From Bacteroidota bacterium (GTDB lineage: Bacteria > Bacteroidota > Ignavibacteria > Kapaibacteriales > UBA961), in the NCBI GenBank assembly GCA_052035765.1, contig JBPOHH010000777.1, positions 1 through 39,105 on the forward strand: a stretch of 39,105 nucleotides of DNA. The letters are read 5' to 3'. This document shows, in pieces, positions 4,191 to 35,311 of the stretch (position 1 is its first letter; each line of letters starts with the position of its first letter). Both the position numbers and the translations under genes were made by a program. The notes under the pieces were generated by a model, which saw nothing but the letters and a program-made list of their open reading frames with translations, was not told where the DNA came from and did not search any database.

Positions 4191-4976
4191 TTACCGTGCG
4201 ATATGTATTTTCTTTGACTGAATATTACCATCTAATTGTCTGCATAACACAAAATATACTCCGTTTGCAAGTGATGAAGTATTTAAATGCTCAACTGTCA
4301 ACGGTTTATCGTTTTTCCAAATTACATTGGACATCGCATCAAAGATACTCATATATACGGGCACATTCGAATGTATGCTAATACTTTCTTCATTATAGCG
4401 AAGAGTAATGTCGTCTTCATGCTTATCGAATTCTTCCTCAACTTTTACCGGTGGAAGTGAATACCAAATCACCAGATTATAGTTTCTCAGTCCCTCATTA
4501 GTAATCATTATACTTTTTCTTGTATCATCGAGTGCAAAAGAATATATCGTGCCTCCGAGTCGGTCCATAATTCTTGCAGAGTCCACATATTGTGGAAACG
4601 GGTATTCCCATTTAAAAAAGAAAGGGCTTTTTCGCTCCGAATAGTCGTTAACGTTGATAGTATATTCTAATGAGAATTTGTTTGTCTCAGGTATTCTTCG
4701 ATAATTTCTATAACTCAATAAATTTTCAACAAGTAATGCTGCATGTATTGGACTCGGTGCCGGCGGATGTCCAGGCAAAAACTGTTCTCCCAGTTTTAAA
4801 TCTAAAGAATCAGTTGCTCTTTCATCTACTCCTGCAACCATCGTAACTTCTGCTCCGCTATCATCACCTGCGATTATCTTAAATTCTACTTTTCTCTGTC
4901 CTAACAGAGTAACTATATTGCTAATCATGAAGATGGCAGTTATCCACCATATTCCATTTCGTTGATTTACATTCAC
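4191..4976 (-). CDS. secreted hypothetical protein with T9SS C-terminal sorting domain (261 aa)
   Basis: I moved the start from the track's TTG (5042) to the in-frame GTG at 4974-4976. That GTG is preceded by AGGAG with an 8-nt spacer. The longer ORF would read through the terminator hairpin of the upstream gene. The resulting N-terminus, MNVNQRNGIWWITAIFMISNIVTLLGQ, looks like a signal peptide or signal anchor. The C-terminus (...VYMSIFDAMSNVIWKNDKPLTVEHLNTSSLANGVYFVLCRQLDGNIQSKKIHIAR) fits the T9SS CTD pattern. Confidence 0.65.
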   Translation of the reverse strand: MNVNQRNGIWWITAIFMISNIVTLLGQRKVEFKIIAGDDSGAEVTMVAGVDERATDSLDLKLGEQFLPGHPPAPSPIHAALLVENLLSYRNYRRIPETNKFSLEYTINVNDYSERKSPFFFKWEYPFPQYVDSARIMDRLGGTIYSFALDDTRKSIMITNEGLRNYNLVIWYSLPPVKVEEEFDKHEDDITLRYNEESISIHSNVPVYMSIFDAMSNVIWKNDKPLTVEHLNTSSLANGVYFVLCRQLDGNIQSKKIHIAR

Positions 4977-4996
4977 GTTGTATACTCCTGATTGAG

Positions 4997-5034
4997 AATA
5001 AAAAAGGGCAACTGAGTGAACTCTGTTGCCCTTT
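4997..5034 (-). terminator. rho-independent terminator downstream of the 1040-aa gene
   Basis: The minus strand reads AAGGGCAAC-agagttcactca-GTTGCCCTT followed by TTTTTTATT: a 9-bp GC-containing stem, a 12-nt loop and a U-tract. It lies about 30 nt after the stop of ORF 5062..8184. Confidence 0.75.
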
Positions 5035-5061
5035 AATTTCAAATACTATATTTCCGAGTTA

Positions 5062-8000
5062 TTATCGAACAACCGACAGAACTGAATTTACAGTAAACTC
5101 GCCAGCTACAACTCTTACAGTATACTGACCACTTGGTAAGGTTGTTGTAGTAAATGGAACATCATATCCACCGGCATTTTTATATTCTTGTACCAAGGTT
5201 GCAACTTCAACACCAAGCATGTTATACACTTTAAGAGTAACGAAGCTATTTTGAGGTACAGTATATCGAACATTTGTAGAACCGGTAGCTGGATTTGGAA
5301 CAGCTTCGACTGAGAACCCAGCAACAGCAACATCAGATTTCAATATTTTAACGGATTGAATTTCTGAATTTGAAATTATAACAGTTGTATTTTGATTGTT
5401 AATCACTCCAAGTGTTTTACCTGTAATTGGATCTACAACTGTGTAATTCGATGTTGGATTTTGAATGGATACTTCAACCGGATATTGTACACCTTGGAAT
5501 TTTACGGTTGTAGCATTAGAATTTTCTGCTTTTGCATTATTTCCAAATCTAACATCAAACATTTCTGTCGGAGGAGTTGGAGGTAATTCAAATTGAGAAA
5601 CGTTTGAATTGCTTGGAGCAAAATACAATTCTGATTGATGTTGACCATTATCAACAATACTAAGCTTATCACTTGAATTCACAATGTTTTGTTTCTCAAC
5701 ATTAACTTCATTTTGATTGAATTTGATACCGGCTGCTTTTAATTTTAAATAGCCTTTATCATCTACCTTAATCCAATATCCAAGACCGGGTTGAATTTCA
5801 GATGACTCAACATATCCTCTGTCTGTTTTATATCCCCAGACACTTGTTGGCTTTGTAGTAGGAATTTGAGTACCTGATGGATCGAAGTTGATGTCACTTA
5901 CATTAACAACAGTACTTAAGCTTCCAATTGTGTTCCATCCTTGTGTCAATAGAACAGGATTAATCGATGCGTTAATATTTGAAATTCTTGTTCCTGCAAT
6001 TTTTGTATCAATTACTTTACCGTAACGAACGAAATAGCCGTAACCAACTTCCAAAAATTCTTGATTTTGATATGAATTTGCATAGAATCTGAATGGTTGA
6101 CCACCTTCAGAATTTGGATATACAACAGTGTAGCTTGAATTAGATGGTTTAACCGGGAGGGAAAGTAAATTCCAACCTGTATTTATTACCGGGAATGAAA
6201 CTACTTTCGGTAAAGTATATTCAATGATAAATGAAGTAATACGAGCATCACGGATGGTATAGTATTGACTTGTTGGGCTGCCACCACCTGTTGCATTTCT
6301 CATGTCAACACTAAACTTCGGTCCTACCAAACCATTGATGGTATCTCTCATAAAGAGTTGTGCACCAACTGGGAAATCTTGTGTATCCCAGCTTACGACA
6401 ATCGGATAGTTAGATGCACCATCAGCATTAAATCTACAGAGGAATGATATTGTTGTATCTGTTGAATTATCACGAATATCACGTGACACTGATCTTGTAC
6501 TTACTACGCCTTCTGATTCGATTGGAATTTCGCTATATCCATAAGGAGCTATTTCGTTGCCGAATGCATCTTTAACATTTGTATTAAACCAACGAGCGTA
6601 GAATCCAACCGGTACGTTTCTATAATAATCTTCACCAAACAAGCTATCAGGACCATCTGTTGCTCTATGTCCTGTTCCGAACACAAGATCATTGCTTTCT
6701 CCGCTTGTACCCTTAGAATTCTTCACGTTAATTCTGATACCATAATCTCTTCCTTGTGCAGGGCTAGCGTATGGCTCAAGAGGATTGCGGAAGAAAATAA
6801 AGACTACTTTTAATCTGACAGGGGAAATAACCGCTGAATATGAAGTAAAGGTAATATAGCCAGTGTACACACCTGCATATTCACCATTGCTTCTCAAGTT
6901 ATCTGTATTACAAATAATTCTAAGACCAAGCGGTGCTTGCGCATCTTTAATGTTATTTCTAGAGTCTTTAAGGTTGGGAGGAACTGGTCCATTAATACCG
7001 TTATCAATATAATCAATCATTCCCTCGCGTGTTTTAACACGTGTAGCTGATGGATTATATCCATTCGGTAAACTTCTAAACATTAACCATGGTTCATTTG
7101 ATTGAGCTAAAATATTAGTTAATCGACTTCTTGAAGTAAGATTAATTACCTGAATATCTCGTGTCCCTTCTTTACCGGTATTTGAAGCTGAGTCAACAAC
7201 AATTGGTCTTACAACTTCCCAAAGTGATCCATCAGGAGTGTTATCATCCTGTTTAACTTCATTATTTGTACCACCAATCACATCTCTAAATCCAATTGCA
7301 GGATTTTCACCCATATTCACCCATATAATACCCGGACGACTCGGATAATCTGGAAAAGCATCTGATGTAACTGTTACACCGGCTAAACCAATTGTTGGAT
7401 TATTTTCCAATCTATATAATTTATTTCCGTAAGGATTAGTAGCATCACCTTGTGACACCTTAGGGAATGGATCATCTACACCAACTCTAAAATCTCTGTC
7501 TGCATCTCCATAACGGAGTGAATCATTCGAAATATACAACGGCGTTTTATCTGAGCCGCTATATGTTGTAGACTGATTAACAAGTTGTGACTTTGTAAGA
7601 GTTACTCTGAATTTCAAATACAGCAAAGGTGCAAAAGTACCTGATTGATCTGTTAAAGGTAATCTTCTTGTAGAAGTACCTGTAACCATCATTCTTCTAC
7701 CATATTTAGTTTCAGCATCAGGTGCACCTGTTAAATAGACTCTAAATCTCTTATCATCTGCAACATCATCCCATTCAAAATTGAAACCCTTAGCAAGTGC
7801 GTTTGTATCACCTCTCTGTGGTCCCAAAACCTGAACTCCTGAAGCTTGCATAACACGACCATCATACATCACTATGAAGGAGAAATTATAGATAGGAAAT
7901 CCACCATATCTTTTATCTGTGACCAATTCAGTTTCTGCCCACAGATTTTGAATATAAACGGGTACGACAATTTCCCGCTCTTTGATATCTGAATATCCTA

Positions 8001-8184
8001 ACCATATTCTACCATCCGAATACAAATTATCTAGGTATCCGTTATTCGTACCTGTTAGTGATAATTTTGGTAAATCGGCCTTTTGTAACTGACCAAATAC
8101 TTGACTCGATGGAGATATACCCATCACCATCGCGAACAATATTGCTAGCAATATGTTCTTCCTTTGTAAAAACCACTCTTGCAT
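5062..8184 (-). CDS. large secreted protein, T9SS cargo (1040 aa), N-terminal cohesin-like module, no recognisable catalytic motif
   Basis: ATG start with GGAGAG 6 nt upstream. The signal peptide is MQEWFLQRKNILLAILFAMVMGISPSSQVFGQ. The C-terminal about 85 aa (VPNPATGSTNVRYTVPQNSFVTLKVYNMLGVEVATLVQEYKNAGGYDVPFTTTTLPSGQYTVRVVAGEFTVNSVLSVVR) is a textbook T9SS type-A CTD pattern. Confidence 0.85.
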   Translation of the reverse strand: MQEWFLQRKNILLAILFAMVMGISPSSQVFGQLQKADLPKLSLTGTNNGYLDNLYSDGRIWLGYSDIKEREIVVPVYIQNLWAETELVTDKRYGGFPIYNFSFIVMYDGRVMQASGVQVLGPQRGDTNALAKGFNFEWDDVADDKRFRVYLTGAPDAETKYGRRMMVTGTSTRRLPLTDQSGTFAPLLYLKFRVTLTKSQLVNQSTTYSGSDKTPLYISNDSLRYGDADRDFRVGVDDPFPKVSQGDATNPYGNKLYRLENNPTIGLAGVTVTSDAFPDYPSRPGIIWVNMGENPAIGFRDVIGGTNNEVKQDDNTPDGSLWEVVRPIVVDSASNTGKEGTRDIQVINLTSRSRLTNILAQSNEPWLMFRSLPNGYNPSATRVKTREGMIDYIDNGINGPVPPNLKDSRNNIKDAQAPLGLRIICNTDNLRSNGEYAGVYTGYITFTSYSAVISPVRLKVVFIFFRNPLEPYASPAQGRDYGIRINVKNSKGTSGESNDLVFGTGHRATDGPDSLFGEDYYRNVPVGFYARWFNTNVKDAFGNEIAPYGYSEIPIESEGVVSTRSVSRDIRDNSTDTTISFLCRFNADGASNYPIVVSWDTQDFPVGAQLFMRDTINGLVGPKFSVDMRNATGGGSPTSQYYTIRDARITSFIIEYTLPKVVSFPVINTGWNLLSLPVKPSNSSYTVVYPNSEGGQPFRFYANSYQNQEFLEVGYGYFVRYGKVIDTKIAGTRISNINASINPVLLTQGWNTIGSLSTVVNVSDINFDPSGTQIPTTKPTSVWGYKTDRGYVESSEIQPGLGYWIKVDDKGYLKLKAAGIKFNQNEVNVEKQNIVNSSDKLSIVDNGQHQSELYFAPSNSNVSQFELPPTPPTEMFDVRFGNNAKAENSNATTVKFQGVQYPVEVSIQNPTSNYTVVDPITGKTLGVINNQNTTVIISNSEIQSVKILKSDVAVAGFSVEAVPNPATGSTNVRYTVPQNSFVTLKVYNMLGVEVATLVQEYKNAGGYDVPFTTTTLPSGQYTVRVVAGEFTVNSVLSVVR

Positions 8185-8211
8185 AATGCTCTCCTCTGAA
8201 TAATAAGAAGA

Positions 8212-9447
8212 TTATTTAATATATTTGATTAACTTTTTTGTTTCTTTATTTTGATTTACATGCATTACTTCTAAAATCGAAACTCCGTTGGAGAATAATT
8301 CTTTGGGAACAATTACTGTCTGTTCAAAATATTTTTTGCTCCACTGAACTTCGCCTATTACATTATAAAGTAAAATTTGGGAGATATTTCCCTCTTCACA
8401 AGTAAGAATAAGTGAACCTTCCCACTCATTTATTCTCATAACTTCATTATCACTGTCATCCAGGTTATTCTTTATATTTACACCAACTATTATTCCTTCT
8501 AATTCAACTTGAACACTATCAGTACTTACAGTATTAACGCAATTGCAAGAAGTCAGTTTAATTACATTTACAAAAATCTTAACTGTATCATTATTATACT
8601 TTTTCCTTAGAATCTGTAAGGTAAAAGCTGGCAGATTAACATTTATACTGTCTTTCCAAGAAACACCAATAATCAAGTTATCATTTTTTATATAGCTTGT
8701 ATCTACTGTCAAACCTGTTTGAACTGATTCTATATTTCTAATACTAAGAATATCTTTTTTGTCGATAATTAATGCTAGTTCTACATTCTTAGTTTTTACG
8801 ATATCTTCATTATTCAGATAAATTGCTATTTGCCCAACACTATCTTCTTTTGATAGAGTGACTTTATCTTTTTTAATGGTCGTTTCAAACTTTTTTCCAC
8901 TGTTTTTTGCAATATTTGCTATCAGCAGTAAATTTTTTCCGGCAATGATTGGTGGTAATTTTGAAAAATCATAATAAGCAGGTATAAACTCTATCAAATT
9001 AACAACTGTAGTATCTGAACAATCATTTAAATATCTTCCTGATAAAGCTATTAGTGGTTGTTTTCCCTTAAGAAACTTATTATTTGTAAAGAATGCTCCC
9101 GATATCCACACTTCTCCTGCTACAGTTTTATTCATGGTCAGCACAGCATCTGATCCTGAGTTTTGCAACGGAGCAGATAATGTCCCTGAAGCCAACATTT
9201 GGTCTAGTTGTATCTTTTTCTCATTAAATCCAAGGTATAAATCAAATCCTACGATACTGTCAGCAGCATATATTTCATCTGTCTGTATATATATCTGAAA
9301 TAGTTTATTTCCACATACATCAATATCAGATAATGTTTTTATTTCTACATTCAAAGTACTTTGAGCATGAACCTCTAGTCTGATACTGCTGAGTATTAAA
9401 ATACCCAGCAGTATACAGAATAGATTTTTTTTGTCAAAGTTTCTCAC
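8212..9447 (-). CDS. secreted protein with two cohesin-like modules and a divergent T9SS-type C-terminal tail (411 aa)
   Basis: The GTG start at 9445-9447 directly abuts the TAA stop of the upstream gene (TAAGTG), which suggests translational coupling. The signal peptide is RNFDKKNLFCILLGILILSSIRLEVHAQ. Cohesin-like pattern: LFQIYIQTDEIYAADSIVGFDLYLGFNEKKIQLDQMLASG...AGEVWISGAFF...GKQPLIALSGRY. C-terminus: ILLYNVIGEVQWSKKYFEQTVIVPKELFSNGVSILEVMHV. The gene is very AT-rich and the protein is rich in K, N and I. Confidence 0.7.
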   Translation of the reverse strand: MRNFDKKNLFCILLGILILSSIRLEVHAQSTLNVEIKTLSDIDVCGNKLFQIYIQTDEIYAADSIVGFDLYLGFNEKKIQLDQMLASGTLSAPLQNSGSDAVLTMNKTVAGEVWISGAFFTNNKFLKGKQPLIALSGRYLNDCSDTTVVNLIEFIPAYYDFSKLPPIIAGKNLLLIANIAKNSGKKFETTIKKDKVTLSKEDSVGQIAIYLNNEDIVKTKNVELALIIDKKDILSIRNIESVQTGLTVDTSYIKNDNLIIGVSWKDSINVNLPAFTLQILRKKYNNDTVKIFVNVIKLTSCNCVNTVSTDSVQVELEGIIVGVNIKNNLDDSDNEVMRINEWEGSLILTCEEGNISQILLYNVIGEVQWSKKYFEQTVIVPKELFSNGVSILEVMHVNQNKETKKLIKYIK

Positions 9448-18300: not shown

Positions 18301-19503
18301 ATCCACTAATTGGCGACGTGAATCCGAATTAGAAACCGCCGGCTCCGCAACAGCTCTATCCAACTCACTCAATGATATTACATTCTGATCTATCGTACTA
18401 CCATCACTTTCGGTCAATGCAGGATTTTTATCTTGAAACACTTGTCTAGATATGTTCAAACCAGTAGTATCTGGATACACCCCTGCTCCTCGTGGAGCTT
18501 GCAACAGCTGCAATGCACCAGCACGGTATCTTGCAATATTATTCGTGAACGTACAGTTCAACAACCATGTTCTTTCAGAAAAACTTGTTAATGCTCCACC
18601 AGCTCCATTGGTCAACTTATTCATCTCATCATTCAATTGAAGAATTGAAGACTGTGCTGCCAACGCCACACCGGCTGTATCATACAAAAACTTCTTATCA
18701 ACTGTAGTGTCTTTTCTGAAATCCTTAAAATCTACGTCTCTAAAGAATGCGGCTCTCGCTCCCGGCATCACTATAATATGCCCCCATTCACGAGAATAAT
18801 CGTTGATTGGCTGACCTCTAAAGACAATTCTTCTCGTGGCATTGTTTACTGGAATATTTGGTGTAACACCAAACAACCTTCTCCAAGGCTGGAAACGAAT
18901 AATGTCATCTGTAGACCACAATCTTGCCGAAGAAAACATAATCGCTCTCATTGGCGAAATCACTATCTTACCTGTTGACGGAACAGGCAAACTTGCACCA
19001 CTTTGCAAGTTTTCCAATCTTTTTGTAACAGTATCAAGCACTACATTGAAAATGTAATTGTATTTCCCGTAGTTACTCGGACTGCTAAAGTTACCAGGAT
19101 AACTTAGTGTACCCTGAATTGTAGCTTCGTTATAATTAGTTTCCTGCACTACTGATGAACTGAGAAAATATCTCATATCATTATACTCCAGCAAACCAAT
19201 CGAAGTTGGCGATGTACCGTTATAAGCAGCACTCAGCCGACTATCAGCTATAATGCGACCGCCCACGGAATCAATCAACCGACCATTATCGAAGAAAATG
19301 ACCTCTGTCCCCGGCTCAATGATCAGTGTCCCAGCTACAGTGTATGTACCACTTATTTGATACACACTATCCTGTAAAAATATCCGCACCTCATTAGGGG
19401 CTATTCGTCCTGCAACCTGCACACGAGGTTTTTGCGCAAACCCCGTACTTATACATAGGGCGAACGCAATGATTAGAGTGCTTAAACGAAACCAACGTTG
19501 CAT
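12340..19503 (-). CDS. giant secreted beta-helix adhesin-like protein (2387 aa): Pmp-type repeats, cadherin-like/He_PIG-like Ig region, shared ELPPxPP module, T9SS CTD
   Basis: ATG start with GGAGG 4 nt upstream. The signal peptide is MQRWFRLSTLIIAFALCISTGFAQ. There are about 10 GGA(I/L/V/M) motifs alternating with FxxN motifs. KWLKINPVSGLLYGTPG (nt ~13713-13766) matches the 'putative Ig' / dystroglycan-type cadherin-like pattern. The CTD is SPNPFNNSTSVVMGVPTSSNVNVEVYDAMGAKVATLANNFYNAGRYELTWNAKSEQGTDLAAGVYFVKMTAGAFSTTQRLMLVK. Confidence 0.9.
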   Translation of the reverse strand: MQRWFRLSTLIIAFALCISTGFAQKPRVQVAGRIAPNEVRIFLQDSVYQISGTYTVAGTLIIEPGTEVIFFDNGRLIDSVGGRIIADSRLSAAYNGTSPTSIGLLEYNDMRYFLSSSVVQETNYNEATIQGTLSYPGNFSSPSNYGKYNYIFNVVLDTVTKRLENLQSGASLPVPSTGKIVISPMRAIMFSSARLWSTDDIIRFQPWRRLFGVTPNIPVNNATRRIVFRGQPINDYSREWGHIIVMPGARAAFFRDVDFKDFRKDTTVDKKFLYDTAGVALAAQSSILQLNDEMNKLTNGAGGALTSFSERTWLLNCTFTNNIARYRAGALQLLQAPRGAGVYPDTTGLNISRQVFQDKNPALTESDGSTIDQNVISLSELDRAVAEPAVSNSDSRRQLVDDARLAVYHGRVRQLTFDNNRALLSDVDTLRINGNRVVTDTNRVAVLRSRSWNNEAFGGAMLIAGRELDENRKIEIGLGVNDSIRTAAGPFGFVSFGSKDFITFTNNYALNRQSSPNSRGAKGGALYIGKYTSLVINGSFRNNFTETPYQINSNSEQYSLGGAVFHENTLGRLQLRGHPSLATEFLNNRAGSGGAVYCDGNSDPRPSPIIGGSDVTNPRIRDYGRRMSFENNTAIAHGGAIYTKRNLTVYGAGGFINDLPLAQAYGTGFSVRFANNSAGYTGGAIAVHLPSIEPPVPIEQRYIRLVRAEFKDNTVGQLAPSASLEIVKQVAGGGAIYSKNGDLNVIKGVEFNNNRAFNSNGGAIAMVHPRTSSRRFFISDADALTLLPNGTAIGYTSNDSLYDNRRKTVVAADVRSLTRFYNNVAEPNPDSRLQGSGTTQMSANSIDIKRFHPGFLRDVLGNGLRENGVGLGGAIFILDSITPQRRFRADSIFLNRVRIQNNTAYTGSAVYSDNYDLKIVLTRCLVTSNKSTSPVGRTQDVIGGPMVGSDNPASSDLAGATFYGEIIGPIPWTSFNIAANSIYDNDARFIIRLPDAPNSKSVLSGGTGIGFGGVDTLRGNYWGRTEGNVSTIIKTSQPVPSPNGGVQETFFIQGNGKTHMQFLRTGRTDDTQQGPFEQNGFPGYVYTAIQIGKIPDTLLMAGRIYDFFDKGTDMKTADYSFRRMSPIEDFAVGIPPKLQRYTNATKASNNKYVRRLTRDPFSTDSLNYATGQENVLWRQLRRLQTEFAPDYRTGELSHPIGYPLFLEARAKYQGEDIYQNNDDPTTPNSSTFFVINDSTGDYIRINMSQFTDMQTLNNDGVYPKEILRGRVDFVLDSVERTGTSARVRRTYEGLYNFGGTETLLPRLADSAFNEDISAFGGRRYELSMSPALNKRGVLYGNGQAVVYSNRPSMPASLASGNDTIVSYFAGERWNSLPVRPGDYVRVISRTVLWRDGVDTAIDKGLGFRIGTSTPPPVFTGNKIALENPKVSPQYFSSYKNKIYLSEDEKYNKAPNPNVRTRDSIFVITAIDSNLMYDPRWAMDIDAAGNIRQQDTIFKRYNQLELSWYPLYVGQFGDTIRDVNSNKLTALRRWIKADTLWPTRGVPNTRALNAPYYGARGVIELKGQPSNPYVVPGGEWMEVVAKNYAPTVRTVDALKGIALKPADSAFITDTLSKFIYLYPSYFHAQRYDDTLLSAPRNARFLNQDTLNFGLTDSSVYRFMIIVTDSFPVFSRIERPSANCQLGTQSLLVANVTDKLRFYVDINTDDEKEDSIAANNEGWDFKYGKTSYGFLSKSLRNVPGDTAIDELYQLRPNWMADRYMYVEGSDTTQDVFANDFTSRGVMNIRIPRAQALNLLKPGSVADQANGGLNTDTIITLVANDGHTGLSYLTRRVFVNISPTITTTTLENAKEDMDYNVDLLNRPRKIAYSDPNFGQAQNFRLLYANDPDTTIAKDPCFKEAGEWDVRDIKKTPKWLKINPVSGLLYGTPGVKDAPHTSALGNPDTVTVVLTDAGGLTDVKVLILNTDSTNHAPKLLAAPVVRCIGQGDTYLDTLLAQDLDLFREKPVWDNSSKFDPILETIKLTVISPAGTNLVIEPATITGTKSDTLQKVVIKSNGPLTINAADIKDGKVTIKVQITDDEITKILEYKLNVSEATDFIVPVTVANNDVRGAFQVLYFGTAKNATTGEKTGEIGKLDSNYCEYELPPVPPRDVFDARWTIALTNGIIRNIFPQAVPKDNNQAIYKARFQAGFLGGNGNSAYPVTITWDRSDVPSRTDATKNPSGASWWIADNISNGQFFKYNMNTGIGRNSATIVDYSATGSKSTVRVNKDDIDGFIITYDFTSDVEEQPVTGMPVSFELSEASPNPFNNSTSVVMGVPTSSNVNVEVYDAMGAKVATLANNFYNAGRYELTWNAKSEQGTDLAAGVYFVKMTAGAFSTTQRLMLVK
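16770..18610 (-). repeat. array of Pmp-type (GGAI / FxxN) parallel beta-helix repeats within the giant CDS
   Basis: GGA motifs: GGALTSF, GGAMLIAG, GGALYIGK, GGAVFHEN, GGAVYCDG, GGAIYTKR, GGAIAVHL, GGAIYSKN, GGAIAMVH, GGAIFILD. These are interleaved with FTNNIA, FDNNRA, FTNNYA, FRNNFT, FLNNRA, FENNTA, FANNSA, FKDNTV, FNNNRA, FYNNVA and IQNNTA. Confidence 0.75.
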
Positions 19504-19592: not shown

Positions 19593-20318
19593 CTACTCAA
19601 CAATCATGCCAAGTCTCGTGAGTCCGCTCTTCGACTCTCCAATGTATTCCATTGATTCTCCGCGAAGAATTTCCCTGAAAAACTTCTCGGCCTTCTCTTT
19701 ATTTCCAGCCTTTTCATAGTTTAACGCTGCATACAATTTGTACTTGTCCTTCATTGTAGTTTGTAGGGTCTGCTGTGCTGCTTTATCATAGTAATCACCA
19801 GCATTTAAGTGGTCTTTTTGCTCTTCTTTGCAAATTGCCAACCCAATTAATGCTCCAACAGCAACCTCTACCGATGCACTTCCTTGCGCTTTCTCGAAGT
19901 ACCCCGCCGCTTCAGCATGCTTTTTTAGTGAGATCAGCGAGTTACCTGCATACAATGCAGCTACTTTACCATTTTCAGTACTACCATATTGCTCTACAAT
20001 TCCTTGTAGTCCTATTAAGGGGGTATCGCGTATTATCTTTGTTGCATCGCCACTTAGCGCTTTTGCGTACTCACCGCTTTCATACATTGTACGTACTCTT
20101 GCTAATGCTGCTGATGCTTCTTTCTCTTTCTCGTTTTTCGATTTGTTGTAAAAAACGACAGCAATAATGGCAACTACGACAATTCCGAGTAGACCCAATC
20201 CTACCTTTAGTTTATTTTTTAAATCTGTGGTCGATACAAGAGTAGTCGCCAGCTCTTTTTCTTGATAACCGCCAACTATTTCGTTGTCTGTATTGCTCAT
20301 TTCATCTTGGATAGCCAT
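19593..20318 (-). CDS. YfgM-like single-pass membrane protein with TPR-like periplasmic domain
   Basis: ATG start. It has an acidic N-terminus, one TM helix (LGLLGIVVVAIIAVVFY) and then helical A/Y/G-rich TPR-like repeats (YESGEYAKAL, AALYAGNSLISLKKHAEAAGYFEKA, AGDYYDKAA, LYAALNYEKAGNKEKAEKFF). Confidence 0.6.
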   Translation of the reverse strand: MAIQDEMSNTDNEIVGGYQEKELATTLVSTTDLKNKLKVGLGLLGIVVVAIIAVVFYNKSKNEKEKEASAALARVRTMYESGEYAKALSGDATKIIRDTPLIGLQGIVEQYGSTENGKVAALYAGNSLISLKKHAEAAGYFEKAQGSASVEVAVGALIGLAICKEEQKDHLNAGDYYDKAAQQTLQTTMKDKYKLYAALNYEKAGNKEKAEKFFREILRGESMEYIGESKSGLTRLGMIVE

Positions 20319-20381
20319 TTTATATTCTCGTTGTTTTATTATTCTGATTTGTTAACTTCTTTATATACAAAGCACTATATG

Positions 20382-20455
20382 TACGCCTGAAGGGAGTCGA
20401 ACCCCCAACCTTTGGAACCGGAATCCAACGCTCTATCCGGTTGAGCTACAGGCGC
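20382..20455 (-). tRNA. tRNA-Arg (anticodon CCG)
   Basis: The reverse complement is GCGCCTG-TA-GCTC-AACCGGATA-GAGC-G-TTGGA-TTCCGGT-TCCAA-AGGTT-GGGGG-TTCGACT-CCCTT-CAGGCGT-A. It folds as a cloverleaf with U33, anticodon CCG, a TTCGA T-loop and discriminator A. CCA is not encoded. There are G1-U72 and two G-U pairs at the base of the T-stem. Confidence 0.85.
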
Positions 20456-25992: not shown

Positions 25993-28272
25993 ATGCCTAT
26001 TCTCCTCATCGCAGCGATATTTTGTTGTAGTCTTTCAATTTGTCTGGCGCAATCCGACAGCGCAGGTACTTCCTCTGTTTCTTCTATACGATCTCCGACT
26101 GGCGCTTCTCGTGAAGCAAGTACCTTACCCTTAGAAGGAGAACTGAATGATGTTCGCTTTATCGGTAACTCCCACTTTACCAGCTCTGCACTTCAAGATG
26201 TTATATCATCATTACCTTCTGATTTAAGTTTTGCTCATCGTATTTTTAGATTTTACTACCGCCAATTATCCATCAACCCATATACTCCTCAACCACTTGA
26301 GGATGCTTTAGGTGTTGCCCTTACAAACTACCAAGACGAGTATCGTTATTTTGATCAAACAGGAGTCGAAAATGATATAGCTACCTTACTCGATGTGTAT
26401 AATCAATACGGCTTTCATAATGCAAAGGCTACGTACAGCTACGATTTCGATTCTACTAATCAAATAAATGTTCTTACTTTCTCTATTACTGAGAATCACC
26501 AATATCAACTTGATACTATAGTTTATCAAGGTCTAGAGCAACTACCGGCTGATCTTCTTTACCAGATTAGATCTATGCTACCTACAGTCAAAGGCATTTA
26601 CTTTAATGAACCTTCAATAAAAAGTACAGCTGATGCCATCATCTCATTTCTCCAAAACAACGGTTATTACTATTCTCATTACACCCAACCAATAGTTCAC
26701 AGCTCCTCAGTTTCATACTCTGACAGTGTTGTCATTCCATTTATCATCGGGAAACGCTGCGTATTCGGTCATATCTCAATCAAGTCAGATTTCAAAGGTC
26801 AGAATCCTATCTCTTCTTACCTCATACGGTTAATGTTTGATATGCTACCAGGTGAATGGTACAACCGTTCCAAAGTCGGCAGCTCTCAAACCAATCTTTA
26901 TAACCTTACAACTTTTGATCTCGTTTCAATTGACACGTCTTCTACTACTCATGGGGCAGAAATTGATACGCTTCACATGCAAGTTTTTCTTCAGTACCTT
27001 AAACAAGCAGAAATTATCATCGCACCTTATATTAATCATACTACCTATGATAATTTTACCAATCTTGGATTTGAAACATCTTTCTATCACAGAAACTTAT
27101 TTGGCGCTGCACAGAATGTAAGCCTTTTTGGACGTTATGTGTTACAGGATTTTTCTCTTCTCTCTTCACCACATTCTATTGCACAAGAATATCAAATCGG
27201 TGGTTTGTTTAGTCAACCTGTTCTATTTGAAGTCAGCTCTGCAAAGATAGATATGTCATTTCAAACTTCGTATTCATATCGATATCTCAACAGTGGGTTG
27301 TCCACGCAAACCATACCGCTGAACATGACCTTATTTCCCCTTCGGTTGAATTTTATGATGCGTTTTCCTTCGCATACATTTTTTAATTCTTTAGTTTTTG
27401 AGCTATTTACCGAATTACAGCAGCTACACAACTTCCTTGACGTCAGTGCTGATATGTATACTAATTCTCAAACTACCGAAGAATTACTAGCAGCCGTCCA
27501 ATTTCTTTCTACCTTCGGCCCTATTAATACTTACGCCGGTGATCAATTAGCTCATCCCGGTCAAATTTTCTCTATGAACCTCATTTCAGATTCTCGAAAT
27601 AATCCTTTTTCACCCACAAAAGGGCTTTTTCTATCTACTTCTTTTGAATTTGCGCTCGGTAAATTGTATAATTTCAGACGGTTCCAGATTACTTATTATC
27701 AGTTTTTTCCATCCGGACAACTCAGTACATTCGCCTGTAAATTTCGGCTCGGTAACATTTGGATCGACTTAGGTAGTAGCTATTATATTCCTTTTGAGCG
27801 ACATTTTTTTGCTGGTGGTGCCAACAGCGTTCGTTCCTATTCTTCCCGTTCTCTTTCCGATACCTTTTCAAGTCTTGGAAATACAAAGGATTACAATCTA
27901 CTTGGTAATGCTACCATTATTGAAGGCAGCTTTGAATATCGTTTCCGTTTTGGGAGACCTCGCGGTATGAATTCTATGCTTGCAGATCAGGTACAACAGA
28001 TGGGTATAACTACTTTCGTGGATTGGGGTAATGCGTTCAACTTACTCGATGCAAATAAATACGGTACCGCTCGAATTTCTAACTTTATTGAAGGCCTCGC
28101 GATTGGATTCGGCTTAGGGTTTCGGTATGAAACACCGGTTGGTCCGTTCAGAGTGGATATCGCTACTCAGTTCCATGATCCGACCTCCTCAACAGATCCT
28201 TGGATTTTTACCCGGAGTCCTTTTTCATCTGAGAACTTACAACTTCATATCGGCTTGGGGCATGCTTTTTAA
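25993..28272 (+). CDS. Omp85/BamA-family outer membrane protein (POTRA + surface antigen D15 beta-barrel)
   Basis: 759 aa. GAGGG lies upstream of the ATG. The signal peptide is MPILLIAAIFCCSLSICLAQ. There are POTRA-like segments (LNDVRFIGNSHFTSSALQDVI; QLDTIVYQGLEQLP). The C-terminal barrel has FFAGGANSVRSY, GFGLGFRYETPVGPFRVDIA and the terminal ...HIGLGHAF (aromatic C-terminus). Confidence 0.8.
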   Translation: MPILLIAAIFCCSLSICLAQSDSAGTSSVSSIRSPTGASREASTLPLEGELNDVRFIGNSHFTSSALQDVISSLPSDLSFAHRIFRFYYRQLSINPYTPQPLEDALGVALTNYQDEYRYFDQTGVENDIATLLDVYNQYGFHNAKATYSYDFDSTNQINVLTFSITENHQYQLDTIVYQGLEQLPADLLYQIRSMLPTVKGIYFNEPSIKSTADAIISFLQNNGYYYSHYTQPIVHSSSVSYSDSVVIPFIIGKRCVFGHISIKSDFKGQNPISSYLIRLMFDMLPGEWYNRSKVGSSQTNLYNLTTFDLVSIDTSSTTHGAEIDTLHMQVFLQYLKQAEIIIAPYINHTTYDNFTNLGFETSFYHRNLFGAAQNVSLFGRYVLQDFSLLSSPHSIAQEYQIGGLFSQPVLFEVSSAKIDMSFQTSYSYRYLNSGLSTQTIPLNMTLFPLRLNFMMRFPSHTFFNSLVFELFTELQQLHNFLDVSADMYTNSQTTEELLAAVQFLSTFGPINTYAGDQLAHPGQIFSMNLISDSRNNPFSPTKGLFLSTSFEFALGKLYNFRRFQITYYQFFPSGQLSTFACKFRLGNIWIDLGSSYYIPFERHFFAGGANSVRSYSSRSLSDTFSSLGNTKDYNLLGNATIIEGSFEYRFRFGRPRGMNSMLADQVQQMGITTFVDWGNAFNLLDANKYGTARISNFIEGLAIGFGLGFRYETPVGPFRVDIATQFHDPTSSTDPWIFTRSPFSSENLQLHIGLGHAF

Positions 28273-32569: not shown

Positions 32570-33523
32570 ATGAACAAAGAAGATTTAACATTGATTGCAA
32601 TAGATGGCGGCGGATCTAAAACGCGAGCTATTATAAAAAAAGGTGAAGAAGTACTGTGGACGATTGTTGCAGGGACAACACGTATCGGAGCGGTGGGTGT
32701 TGGCGAGTCATGTGAGCGACTTTTGAATATGATTCGCGATTTATGCCAAAAGACAGAAATAGATTCAAGTGAAATTGATGCGATTGTTATTGGCTTGGCG
32801 GGTGTATGGTTAGAAGAAGAAAAGTTACGATCGAACCAGTTAATTAAAACCCTGGCAAGGAACAGCAAAATCACGATCAATGATTTATTAGTGATAAGTG
32901 ATGCTGAAATTGCTTTAGAAGGAGTTCTAGGTGGTAACAACGGTATTGCTTTGATTGCAGGGACCGGTACGATTACTCTTGGTAAAATTCAAGATGGCGA
33001 AATAGTACGAAGCGGTGGGTGGGGTATCGAACTCGATGATGAAGGTAGTGGTGCATGGATTGGCCGAGAAGGTCTTAATGCTATTGTGCGTGGAATTGAT
33101 GGTAGAAGTGAACAGACAGCGCTCTATGATATGCTAATCGAACAGTATCCGATGTTGAAAAAAGACAAACCAAGAACAATAGTTTCAGCGTATGCAGAAA
33201 GAATCTTTGAATACCACACCCTTACACCAATGGTGATGAAATGTGCAGAAAATGGTGATACAATATGTTATGATATCATCGATAGATCAGCAAAACATCT
33301 GGTTGACAATATTGTCTCAGTACGACGTAAATATAATAATTCCAAAGACATCATTGAGGTAGCGTGTATGGGAGGAATGCTCGAAAATGACACCCTTCTC
33401 CTGAGATTACTCAATACCTACCTTCGAGAAGTAAATAATATAACCGTTGTCAGTCCAGTCGGAACAGCACTCGAAGGTGCTCTGAGACTTGGGCATAAAT
33501 TACTGCAAGAATATGAGGACTAA
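32570..33523 (+). CDS. BadF/BadG/BcrA/BcrD-type ATPase, N-acetylglucosamine kinase-like
   Basis: 317 aa. It has ASKHA phosphate-1 LIAIDGGGSKTRAI, GLAGV, LIAGTGTI, GGWGIELDDEGSGAWIGREG and MGGM. Confidence 0.7.
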   Translation: MNKEDLTLIAIDGGGSKTRAIIKKGEEVLWTIVAGTTRIGAVGVGESCERLLNMIRDLCQKTEIDSSEIDAIVIGLAGVWLEEEKLRSNQLIKTLARNSKITINDLLVISDAEIALEGVLGGNNGIALIAGTGTITLGKIQDGEIVRSGGWGIELDDEGSGAWIGREGLNAIVRGIDGRSEQTALYDMLIEQYPMLKKDKPRTIVSAYAERIFEYHTLTPMVMKCAENGDTICYDIIDRSAKHLVDNIVSVRRKYNNSKDIIEVACMGGMLENDTLLLRLLNTYLREVNNITVVSPVGTALEGALRLGHKLLQEYED

Positions 33524-33524
33524 T

Positions 33525-34841
33525 ATGAAACATACAAGCCTATTGCTCACCATAATTCTGGTCGTCATCGGGTACACAATAGTCAACGCCCAGACAGATG
33601 CTCCACACGCAAACCCTCTTTCTGTTGAAATGGCAAGAAGAGTTTCGAAAGAATTATTAGGACCTAATAGTGGTCCATTCATGAAGCCACTCGTTACTAC
33701 TTCCAATGCTGCTGCTAACTCTCGCTTCTTTCGAACCGCATATATCCCAACGAAAGTTGAAAAACCATACTTTAGATTTGGCTTACACTCGATGTTTGGG
33801 TTCGTTAGGGAAGACCAAAAAACATATACACCGGTTGCCCCAAGAATGACAATTAACGAAGTATTAGCTGATAAAGAAGCTGCAGAATATAGCATAAATA
33901 TCTTTGACCCGACAAAATCAACAGTCAAAATCAAAGATACAGCTGGGATGGTAGTAAATATACTCAAGTACTTGTTTGATAAGGGACTCAAAGATACAGC
34001 CAATAGCCACATGTCCTTCCCGGATAAATCAGCAACGATATTTGGAAACAGTACAGCAGGTTTAGTCTTAAATAACAAGTACTTCCTCGATCAATTGCAA
34101 AAAGACGACCCGTTGCTGTCGGCGCTCTATAACAGCACGGCTCTAAGTCAAAGTGTGAAAGACTCACTCGTTAAAGCAATTATGGGATTCCCATCGTTTT
34201 TTGCGCTGCCGACAGGTGGAAATATTTCTACGGTTTTCGCTGCTATTCCTCAGCTCGAAATCGGGTCATTGTATGGCACAGAACTACTCCTGAGGTTCAT
34301 CCCACCAATGAAAATTGATAAAAATGTTGGAGAATTTGCATTTTGGGGAATAGGGCTCAAACATAGTCTGTCGCAGTATTTCGATAAAAGAATGTTTGAT
34401 GCTGCGATACAAGTAGTCTATCAAGGTACTCATCTCGAGAACACTATAGGTGTTACGAATGCTGATTTAACATCGGACGGTACGATGTTTAACATCAATC
34501 TACAGGCAAGCAAACACTACGAAGGGATAGTTGATGTGTTTGGCGGGGTGTCGTATGAAACGATGACAATAGCATCGACCTACAAATATGTACTACCCGC
34601 GGAAACTCAAATGCAACTTGGTTTATTACGTAATCCCGGTACCCCAACAATCAAACCGGTTCCCGAGCCGCCGGAATGGCCGGGAGATACTGCTCCGCAA
34701 ACAGCAGAATATAATGTATCAGATTCAAATATCAAAGTAGTACTAGGTGTGGCAAAACAGGTAGGTCCGGTGACGTTTTTTGTAGATTACAGCGTAAGTA
34801 AATTTAATATATTCTCTTTAGGCGTGGATCTAACATTCTAA
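33525..34841 (+). CDS. hypothetical outer-membrane (beta-barrel-like) protein of unknown function (438 aa)
   Basis: I moved the start to the ATG at 33525. It lies 1 nt after the upstream TAA, with GAGGA 5 nt upstream. The signal peptide is MKHTSLLLTIILVVIGYTIVNAQ. The sequence has alternating hydrophobic beta-strand-like patterns and a C-terminal ...FNIFSLGVDLTF (terminal Phe), as in OM barrels. Confidence 0.6.
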   Translation: MKHTSLLLTIILVVIGYTIVNAQTDAPHANPLSVEMARRVSKELLGPNSGPFMKPLVTTSNAAANSRFFRTAYIPTKVEKPYFRFGLHSMFGFVREDQKTYTPVAPRMTINEVLADKEAAEYSINIFDPTKSTVKIKDTAGMVVNILKYLFDKGLKDTANSHMSFPDKSATIFGNSTAGLVLNNKYFLDQLQKDDPLLSALYNSTALSQSVKDSLVKAIMGFPSFFALPTGGNISTVFAAIPQLEIGSLYGTELLLRFIPPMKIDKNVGEFAFWGIGLKHSLSQYFDKRMFDAAIQVVYQGTHLENTIGVTNADLTSDGTMFNINLQASKHYEGIVDVFGGVSYETMTIASTYKYVLPAETQMQLGLLRNPGTPTIKPVPEPPEWPGDTAPQTAEYNVSDSNIKVVLGVAKQVGPVTFFVDYSVSKFNIFSLGVDLTF

Positions 34842-34849
34842 AAAACATA

Positions 34850-35311
34850 TCAGTTGTTTTTGCTAGAATCCGAATCACTCGGCAATAAGCGCAAAAATAC
34901 GCGATATGACTTCTGAGAATCCGGCGTGTTCGTCCGGATGGTGTAATCAATACGTTGTAAAGAATCGGACAGATTCTTGGTGTTTACCGATAATCGAATA
35001 GTTCCTTTGCTAAACGGAACTATGTAGGAATGAATAATCGCAGCATTTGCACAATAACACGATCCGCGCATTCCGTAAATTTCTAGGGGCTGTCCTCCAC
35101 GATTAAGTATCGTAATGTCTTTGATGATAAAATCACCCTGCTTGAAATCCAAGTGGAGCTCCGATGGAACTACTTCTATTTCAGGAGGATAAAGTGTGTC
35201 TGCAACAATTCCATTGCCAAGGCGATCGTAATATCTACTGCGTGCGGGAAACACACAAAGGAGAACTACAAGCAGTAAAAATGCACCGGAAAATGATAGT
35301 TTCTTATTCAT
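34850..35311 (-). CDS. DUF1573-like secreted protein
   Basis: 153 aa. The signal peptide is MNKKLSFSGAFLLLVVLLCVF. FIIKDITILNRGGQPLEIYGMRGSCYCANA fits the DUF1573 pattern (f.f.N.G..pL.I..v..sC.C). Confidence 0.65.
   Translation of the reverse strand: MNKKLSFSGAFLLLVVLLCVFPARSRYYDRLGNGIVADTLYPPEIEVVPSELHLDFKQGDFIIKDITILNRGGQPLEIYGMRGSCYCANAAIIHSYIVPFSKGTIRLSVNTKNLSDSLQRIDYTIRTNTPDSQKSYRVFLRLLPSDSDSSKNN

Follow-up and report, generated by a model that had tools for sequence, protein, structure and literature searches.

A conserved block of five genes for predicted type IX secretion cargo in Kapabacteria

Do five adjacent genes for large secreted proteins encode the parts of one surface structure, or do they merely lie side by side? 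The question is raised by a block of ~15 kb on contig JBPOHH010000777.1 of a Bacteroidota genome (assembly GCA_052035765.1). We analysed a stretch of 39,105 nt of this contig, here called the window, and all coordinates are 1-based on its forward strand. The original prediction for the block was that each of the five proteins carries a signal peptide and the C-terminal domain (CTD) of type IX secretion system (T9SS) cargo, and that the set is not a random one. The genes, which we name A to E, are as follows (aa, amino acids; ORF, open reading frame):

12340-19503, minus strand: gene A, an ORF of 2387 aa
9448-12249, minus strand: gene B, 933 aa from the ATG at 12249 (the longest ORF, 9448-12324, has 958 aa)
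8212-9447, minus strand: gene C, 411 aa, with a GTG start
5062-8184, minus strand: gene D, an ORF of 1040 aa
4191-4976, minus strand: gene E, 261 aa (the longest ORF, 4191-5042, has 283 aa)

ORF re-calling and public gene calls reproduced the predicted sizes, coordinates, gaps and TAAGTG junction. The coordinates leave 90 nt between A and B, 0 nt between B and C, 27 nt between C and D, and 85 nt between D and E. The B/C junction reads AGA TAA GTG AGA, i.e., the GTG start of C abuts the stop codon of B. The sizes of B, C, D and E (933, 411, 1040 and 261 aa) are those of public gene calls on identical contigs, the window matching a contig of GCA_020051655.1.

The main evidence that the block is a unit comes from its relatives. 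Scanning one genome per GTDB species gave 80 loci, one per assembly and with complete chromosomes among them, nearly all of which are labelled Kapabacteria, Kapaibacterium or 'Ignavibacteria'. Gene order was read at each locus (L followed by a number below) by tblastn and ORF calling, and the A-B-C-D order was counted where at least 9 kb was available upstream of D. A, B, a C-sized ORF and D lie in the same order and on the same strand in 62 of the 64 loci with enough upstream flank. The exceptions are one locus in which the C-position ORF is shortened to 285 aa and one in which a 364-aa C-position ORF was missed by a stricter script. An E-sized ORF follows D in 65/69 loci with downstream flank, and a rearranged order was seen in no locus with enough flank. 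Orthologues have ~2000-2400 aa (A), 610-950 aa (B), 364-426 aa (C), 1004-1134 aa (D) and 239-298 aa (E).

The order also persists in a deeper clade, where A is ~1990 aa long and ~33% identical and where the outer flanks differ. Hidden Markov models detect all five orthologues there, with E-values of 1e-292 (A), 1e-123 (B), 1e-8 to 1e-10 (C), 1e-166 (D) and 1e-11 to 1e-16 (E). Homologues of the five genes are therefore not scattered among relatives, and the view that they are not a random set of cargo is well supported, as order and orientation are kept in ~60 species while the outer flanks differ. Five adjacent CTD genes in a fixed order in ~60 species is far beyond chance, and we hold with high confidence that the block is a conserved, co-inherited operon of T9SS cargo genes. 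The operon is vertically inherited and characteristic of Kapabacteria and, with one locus per assembly among the 80 GTDB species loci, apparently single-copy. Complete genomes that bear it are CP058732.1, OZ123195.1, OY762428.1 and OW818676.1.

The conserved unit reaches further upstream than the five genes and includes two more features (TPR, tetratricopeptide repeat):

19593-20318, minus strand: TPR gene, for a 241-aa membrane-anchored YfgM/TPR_21-like protein with TPR matches in Pfam, 89 nt upstream of A
20381-20455, minus strand: tRNA-Arg(CCG), called by ARAGORN and Rfam, the upstream boundary of the conserved unit

TPR homologues adjoin A in L023, L026, L046, L072, L083, L088 and L089, and one is present wherever the flank reaches. 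Those of L088 and L089 share 27-32% identity with the window's protein (1e-18 to 1e-25), and the L089 protein matches TPR_21. The tRNA-Arg(CCG) gene lies directly upstream of the TPR gene in the window, L083, L088, L089 and L090. Beyond the tRNA-Arg and TPR genes, the upstream genes differ between clades, and the downstream neighbours vary as well: the window's clade has a flavoenzyme there, L006 has glycosyltransferases, L007 a transglutaminase-like gene, and both L088 and L089 have exonuclease VII. The conserved order is thus tRNA-Arg(CCG), TPR, A, B, C, D, E. A part for the TPR gene in the A to E system is something that we infer from synteny only.

What marks the five proteins for export? 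In each N-terminus, A|Q or G|Q comes after a hydrophobic stretch (5/5, by eye and a simple motif count rather than a predictor), for example AFA|Q at the end of the signal peptide in A and RA|Q in B. By motif count, the same pattern occurs in 45-63 of ~70 orthologues per family. A glutamine at +1 is the 'Q-rule' for signal peptidase I substrates in Bacteroidetes (PMC5837995), which A to E fit. The signal peptide claimed for all five proteins is therefore seen in each of them and in most of their orthologues.

The T9SS CTDs were assessed with TIGR04183 (the type A CTD, cut-off 23 bits) and PF18962 (cut-off 27 bits). The CTDs outside E are placed as follows:

12343-12594, minus strand: T9SS type A CTD of A, residues 2304-2387, TIGR04183 35.6 bits
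9451-9699, minus strand: CTD of B, residues 851-933, TIGR04183 27.0 bits and PF18962 27.7 bits
8215-8490, minus strand: degenerate CTD of C, residues ~320-411, identified by PF18962 in 38/72 orthologues, by solved CTD 8glk_D and by the CTD of E
5065-5298, minus strand: CTD of D, residues 963-1040, TIGR04183 27.9 bits

A, B and D exceed the TIGR04183 cut-off, E lies just under it at 22.3 bits, and A also reaches 27.6 bits with PF18962. The C protein of the window has no TIGR04183 or PF18962 match at E<=1 and matches no Pfam or NCBIfam family. Its CTD emerges from the family: beside the PF18962 matches in 38/72 C orthologues (and in 53/71 E orthologues), the C profile aligns to 8glk_D, a solved T9SS CTD, at 1.7e-6, and the tail of C aligns to the tail of E with 96% hhalign probability. 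The E profile aligns to 8glj_D at 8.6e-9, the D profile to both 8glj_D and 8glk_D, and the B profile to the CTDs of PorU, PorZ and gingipains. All five tails are mutually alignable in profile-profile comparison, and the CTD matches end a few residues or less from the stop codon. The prediction of a CTD on all five proteins thus stands directly for A, B and D, narrowly misses the cut-off in E (22.3 versus 23 bits), and holds for C only through its orthologues and family profile. TIGR04131, the type B model, has no match in A to E, and the best CHU_C score, in A, is 19.9 bits against a cut-off of 27, weaker than PF18962. Classed by these models, the CTDs are type A, not type B.

Three observations go beyond the original prediction: the conserved unit reaches the TPR and tRNA-Arg genes, A contains a large orphan region, and the subunits evolve at very unequal rates. 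The rates were compared with the closest relative, L008, a 'Candidatus Kapaibacterium sp.' metagenome-assembled genome (MAG) whose D is 95% identical to that of the window. Nonsynonymous divergence (dN) rises from 0.032 in A through 0.035 in D and 0.066 in B to 0.078 in the adjacent flavoenzyme, 0.184 in E and 0.420 in C. Synonymous divergence (dS) is saturated (>1.2), so only relative dN was used and no dN/dS. Relative to A, divergence is 6 to 13 times faster in C and E, C being the fastest and A the best conserved. Protein identity to L008 follows the same order (95% for A and D, 72% for E, 49% for C), as does mean pairwise identity within families (A 0.48, D 0.41, B 0.40, E 0.24, C 0.21).

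A, D and B are therefore under stronger constraint than the neighbouring housekeeping flavoenzyme. It is unusual for a giant secreted protein such as A to evolve more slowly than a neighbouring core enzyme, and likewise for a 49%-identical C to sit beside an A and a D that are 95% identical. C also has the lowest GC content of the block (0.30, versus 0.36-0.39 for the other genes), which together with its low identity points to allele replacement or diversifying selection in an otherwise conserved operon. The low dN that A and D show from end to end would suit extensive buried interfaces, and the high dN of C and E would suit an exposed location. Both the class-wide conservation and this contrast in rates are surprising.

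The domain content of A gives further clues to what kind of protein sits at the core. Upstream of its CTD, four regions can be distinguished:

16444-19434, minus strand: repeat region of the PMP/POMP type, residues ~24-1020, PF02415 54.8 bits in four stretches, TIGR01376 35.1 bits
14554-16446, minus strand: orphan region, residues 1020-1650, densely invariant, with many invariant D/E/R/H/W/Y columns
13174-14556, minus strand: Ig/cadherin-like repeats, residues 1650-2110, weak He_PIG matches of 17.1-17.9 bits (cut-off 24)
12604-13203, minus strand: shared β-sandwich module, residues 2101-2300, with the motif ATxG..LGE.ELPPxPP..FDxRW, from hhalign and BLASTP

The first region confirms the proposed Pmp repeats, both scores being above their cut-offs (20.6 bits for PF02415 and 15 bits for TIGR01376), and GGAIY/FxxN repeats are visible in the consensus of the A alignment. 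It is presumed to form a right-handed β-helix, going by its family rather than by a confident model. For the orphan region, Pfam gave no family at E<=1 and the PDB no relative by sequence or profile, and a search of 1.84 billion representative proteins found only 64 relatives. Those longer than ~1,600 aa are all proteins of 2000-3070 aa with the region at a similar relative position, so this 630-aa region appears to occur only in the A protein family. An AlphaFold model of residues 760-1900 is poor, with a predicted local distance difference test (pLDDT) score of 59. Its Foldseek matches, protocadherin ectodomains at E ~1e-6 and a template-modelling (TM) score of ~0.1-0.25, are a hint only.

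Some A orthologues are longer, at 2700-3070 aa, and have extra matches to BNR, Sortilin-Vps10 and PSII_BNR β-propeller families (L006 1-6917; P0076, P0080, P0110-P0141). The giant subunit therefore gains and loses domains between lineages.

D models well. Its AlphaFold model has a mean pLDDT of 84 and shows an all-β chain of about eight sandwich domains followed by the CTD. Foldseek of the whole model against the PDB gave only generic chains of multiple immunoglobulin (Ig) domains, at TM ~0.1, and no catalytic fold. The full-length homologues of D fall into 58 clusters (31-88% identity), and Pfam finds only the CTD in its orthologues (15/15). The predicted Ig/cadherin-like modules thus have loose support, from the sub-threshold He_PIG matches in A, the sandwich chain of D and the low-confidence model of A.

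Profile comparisons link A, D and E. Two copies of the module listed above for A are found in D:

6118-6735, minus strand: shared module copy 1 of D, residues 484-689, hhalign 98% to A and 96% to E, with the invariant motif FGTGHRATDG.D.LFGE
5305-5667, minus strand: shared module copy 2 of D, residues 840-960, FELPPxPP..FDVRF, from hhalign

E consists of a signal peptide, one such module (residues 32-168) and its CTD (residues ~202-261). The hhalign probabilities are 98% for A 2101-2316 with D 484-689, 98.5% for A 2101-2387 with E 33-261, 96% for D 840-1040 with E 33-261, and 99% for A 2143-2387 with D 865-1040; BLASTP aligns A 2137-2387 with D 859-1040 at 2e-13. On these alignments, one predicted β-sandwich module (motif ATxG..LGE.ELPPxPP..FDxRW) is common to A, D (twice) and E. 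The earlier claim that the proteins share paralogous modules is thus real for this module and, in all five, for the CTD.

B has a different layout: a signal peptide, two NIDO-like modules, a conserved acidic region resembling calcium-binding loops, a β-sandwich and the CTD. The NIDO-like copies are placed as follows:

11329-12045, minus strand: NIDO-like copy 1 of B, residues 69-307, a clade-specific tandem duplicate
10558-11307, minus strand: NIDO-like copy 2 of B, residues 315-564, the universal copy, PF06119 22.5 bits against a cut-off of 25

The copies are 33% identical to each other (E 2e-31). The columns of copy 1 are filled in only ~13-25% of B orthologues: in the window's own clade B has ~900-950 aa and both copies, and elsewhere ~610-730 aa and a single copy. 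The NIDO-like module that had been predicted is sub-threshold in the window's own B, but PF06119 (NIDO) matches 9/44 orthologues (best 3.3e-6), and the internal duplication adds to the case. In C, the orthologue alignment shows five invariant residues (C45, D63, C143, C301 and C303).

Cohesin-like modules, also predicted, could not be established. The Cohesin family PF00963 matches 3/72 C orthologues at ~1e-3 (E>=0.0015), 0/15 D orthologues, 0/44 B orthologues and not the C of the window, and the N-terminal modules of C and D align with 11.7% hhalign probability, i.e., no shared module. A cohesin module common to B, C and D was set aside as unsupported: profile-profile comparison found none, and the three marginal Pfam matches are all there is. 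A dockerin-like stretch in B (WGDGDAD...DARLVLR..., GDVNHNG..., DAAWILRYIAG) was rejected too, with PF00404 in 0/44 orthologues and no PDB match. The B profile aligns to a C. thermocellum dockerin sequence with 1.7% hhalign probability.

Searches for enzymes were also negative. Pfam, NCBIfam, and PDB sequence and profile searches found no enzyme family in A to E, and the PDB searches with all five families returned CTD matches only. The statement that the block has no recognisable enzymes therefore holds as far as these tools reach. Nor are there SusC, SusD or glycoside hydrolase families among the window ORFs of at least 100 aa or in the related loci shown, which agrees with the predicted absence of SusC/SusD genes. 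Kapabacteria have been reported to carry gene clusters for carbohydrate-active enzymes without susCD (PMC10576277). Beyond the PMP repeats, NIDO and the CTD, sequence comparison connects none of the five families to a characterised protein.

What, then, might the operon build? The reading that we favour, at about an even chance, is that A to E form a T9SS-exported, hetero-oligomeric and non-enzymatic surface coat or adhesive complex, with a conserved core and variable exposed subunits. The proteins would cross the inner membrane through Sec, and the membrane-anchored YfgM-like TPR protein may, judging by synteny alone, assist the giant substrates in the periplasm. The T9SS translocon would then recognise each protein by its own CTD and export it, after which a PorU-type sortase would probably cut off the CTD and attach the protein to the outer-membrane surface. 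A (β-helix and cadherin-like), B and D would make up a conserved and largely buried scaffold, and C and E would be exposed, rapidly changing small subunits. Since export and anchoring are signalled separately on each subunit, we prefer a coat or adhesive complex to a polymeric fibre anchored at its base.

In mode of action, the closest known systems would be T9SS-dependent surface layers, namely TfsA/TfsB of T. forsythia and the CTD-protein layer of P. gingivalis anchored by A-type lipopolysaccharide (A-LPS). The T. forsythia S-layer operon tfsA-tfsB consists of adjacent genes for large, non-enzymatic, Ig-like-rich proteins with Sec signal peptides and type A CTDs, which are exported by T9SS and attached one by one to the cell surface as a coat. 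The A to E block resembles it in having adjacent genes for large CTD proteins of Ig-like or β-sandwich domains (as in the D model). However, PDB searches gave no relation beyond the CTD and no match to TfsA/TfsB. The block differs in encoding five proteins rather than two, among them one of 2387 aa that combines a PMP β-helix with an orphan domain. Its core is conserved class-wide at a housekeeping level, whereas S-layer proteins usually diverge quickly. In P. gingivalis, CTD proteins anchored by A-LPS form an electron-dense surface layer. The T9SS translocon there recognises the type A CTD, and PorU, the sortase, then cleaves the CTD and anchors the cargo via A-LPS (PMC8545088, PMC5562754, PMC9143113). 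We propose the same kind of individual anchoring for A to E.

Other multi-protein or repeat-rich systems are less similar. Chlamydial Pmps and A share the GGA(I/L/V)/FxxN repeat family (PF02415, TIGR01376), which forms β-helical adhesin passengers. However, a Pmp is a type V autotransporter that ends in a β-barrel, whereas A has a T9SS CTD and no autotransporter domain was found in it, and A is two to three times the size of a Pmp, with >1300 additional residues of other domains. Cellulosome scaffolds built on cohesin-dockerin pairs likewise comprise several co-encoded secreted modular proteins, but A to E have no supported cohesin or dockerin and no enzymes. A polysaccharide utilisation locus is defined by a SusC/SusD pair with glycoside hydrolases, none of which is present in the window or the related loci shown.

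Several points weigh against a coat or adhesive complex. None of the T9SS core genes (porK/L/M/N, sov/sprA, porU, porV) lies within the 39-kb window. In some Bacteroidota, according to one report, type A CTD cargo is released rather than anchored (PMC10202324), which makes surface attachment of A to E an assumption. That A evolves more slowly than the flavoenzyme is unusual for adhesins and S-layers, and residues 1020-1650 of A could hold a catalytic or other conserved activity. Finally, no assembly modules of the cohesin/dockerin type, which would have supplied a concrete way to assemble, are supported in A to E or in the orthologues searched.

The last of these points also favours the strongest alternative: that A to E are independent but co-regulated surface adhesins or binding proteins that serve one task (e.g., attachment to particles or cells) and form no complex. 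The synteny would then persist through co-regulation and vertical inheritance. With its own signal peptide and CTD, each protein could be exported and anchored alone, and PMP, NIDO and Ig-like modules are typical of binding proteins. However, the order and spacing are kept strictly across the class, down to ~33% identity, which is more than co-regulation usually maintains, and very low dN along all of A and D suggests extensive constrained surfaces, which free adhesins would not have. We therefore regard independent adhesins as a possible but somewhat unlikely explanation.

It is less likely still that A is an unrecognised extracellular enzyme, with its active site in the β-helix (e.g., a polysaccharide lyase or hydrolase) or in residues 1020-1650, and that B to E bind its substrate or are otherwise accessory. 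Right-handed β-helices often bear carbohydrate-active sites. In its degree of conservation A equals or exceeds a housekeeping enzyme, many of its D/E/H/R/Y/W residues are invariant, and its orphan region has neither a family assignment nor a reliable model that would speak for or against catalysis. Against this, no enzyme family or solved enzyme was matched by sequence or profile, and Foldseek of A 760-1900 gives only cadherin-like repeats. The operon also occurs in Kapabacteria of very different metabolisms, including a sulfate reducer (L075, Ch6) that is predicted not to degrade polysaccharides (PMC7509429).

A gliding apparatus is very improbable. SprB (with sprC/sprD/sprF) and RemA of F. 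johnsoniae pair a giant T9SS-secreted repeat protein with smaller co-operonic proteins at the cell surface (PMC8986121, PMC9143113), and A to E are similar in this respect. On that view the T9SS/Gld motor would propel A as a mobile surface adhesin, with B to E as accessory proteins like those of sprCDBF. RemZ of F. johnsoniae is matched in its C-terminal part by the E profile (8gl8_D, 1.1e-6). However, SprB ends in a type B CTD and has SprF as its PorP-like partner, whereas the CTDs of A to E are type A by the models above (TIGR04131 without a match, CHU_C under its cut-off), no PorP/SprF-like gene is found in the block or the related loci, and no sequence homology to SprB was detected. In addition, the operon-bearing L073 (RCNO01000003.1) and L075 are described as flagellated and chemotactic, with gliding unmentioned (PMC6338057, PMC7509429).

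We rejected as hardly credible the idea that D or other members are lineage-specific, PorU/PorZ-like parts of the T9SS rather than cargo: class-wide conservation, an apparent single copy, the PorU (6za2) and PorZ (5m11) structures among the Foldseek matches of D and the PorU/PorZ CTDs matched by the B profile would suit it, but the structural matches have TM ~0.08 and low probability and are explained by CTD and Ig-like domains, the CTD of A is all that the sortase model NF033707 matches (26 bits against a cut-off of 420), and no gingipain-like catalytic domain or β-propeller was detected.

Returning to a surface complex of A to E, a bolder version can be put forward as speculation that we consider doubtful. 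The tRNA-Arg/TPR/A-E unit might be more than a passive coat, namely an undescribed, class-defining surface machine of Kapabacteria, in which A contributes a new 630-aa functional domain, A, B and D are an obligate slow core, and C and E diversify, as specificity subunits or as decoys, towards phages, predators or partner cells. If so, it could serve attachment, capture or envelope organisation. If C and E are exposed variable subunits, they may determine how the cell interacts with phages or predators.

Kapabacteria are a widespread class of Bacteroidota with hardly any cultured members, known from lakes, hot springs, aquifers, soils and wastewater, and the operon takes up ~15 kb of their ~2.5-5 Mb genomes in every lineage examined, whatever its metabolism. 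This retention, together with an A that evolves more slowly than a core flavoenzyme, makes the operon a central and unexplained part of Kapabacteria biology. It can be used as a lineage marker and is a target for cryo-electron tomography and surface proteomics. It also shows that T9SS cargo can sit in a strictly ordered multi-gene unit, and it brings to light five protein families and a large orphan domain without characterised relatives. Our literature search found nothing relevant on T9SS or surface structures in Kapabacteria and no paper that describes the operon.

NCBI taxonomy places Kapaibacterium in Bacteroidota, class Eximiradiia, order Eximiradiales, beside the family Eximiradiaceae with the genus Eximiradius. 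This placement suggests that there is a relative in culture or with a formal name; a literature search found nothing on Eximiradius. Many operon-bearing MAGs carry the labels 'uncultured Hyphomicrobiales', 'Chitinophaga pinensis', 'Patescibacteria group', 'Chloroflexota' or 'Candidatus Didemnitutus' (L020, L024, L033, L034, L039, L043, L050-L052, L058, L067, L069, L070 and L077). These labels conflict with the gene content and look like mislabelling or binning errors.

The rest of the window holds ordinary chromosomal genes, among them those for a glutamate-synthase-like flavoprotein, an E1 dehydrogenase, GatB, an Omp85 protein, MnmE/MnmG, DapB and AnmK. Taken at its longest, the ORF of the downstream flavoenzyme starts at 4231 and shares 41 nt with the end of E, but this is an artefact of choosing the longest ORF: public gene calls start it at 4189, leaving a 1-nt gap after the stop codon of E (4191-4193). 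A scan of the locus for promoters and terminators was uninformative, with counts equal to those in shuffled controls. The 759-aa Omp85/POTRA protein (25993-28272, plus strand) scores higher with the TamL lipoprotein model of Bacteroidota (142 bits) than with BamA (117 bits), both far under the curated cut-offs.

Two entries for Ca. Thermonerobacter touch on the subject. A 'SprA-related family' entry in its gene table is ambiguous and was not counted, and a FlgD-annotated gene in its diel transcript tables has unrelated genes as neighbours. About 14 kb from the block (33489-35311), a gene for a 450-aa DUF6588 protein (plus strand) adjoins one for a 153-aa DUF1573/OS_HP2-like protein (minus strand), both of uncharacterised envelope-type families.

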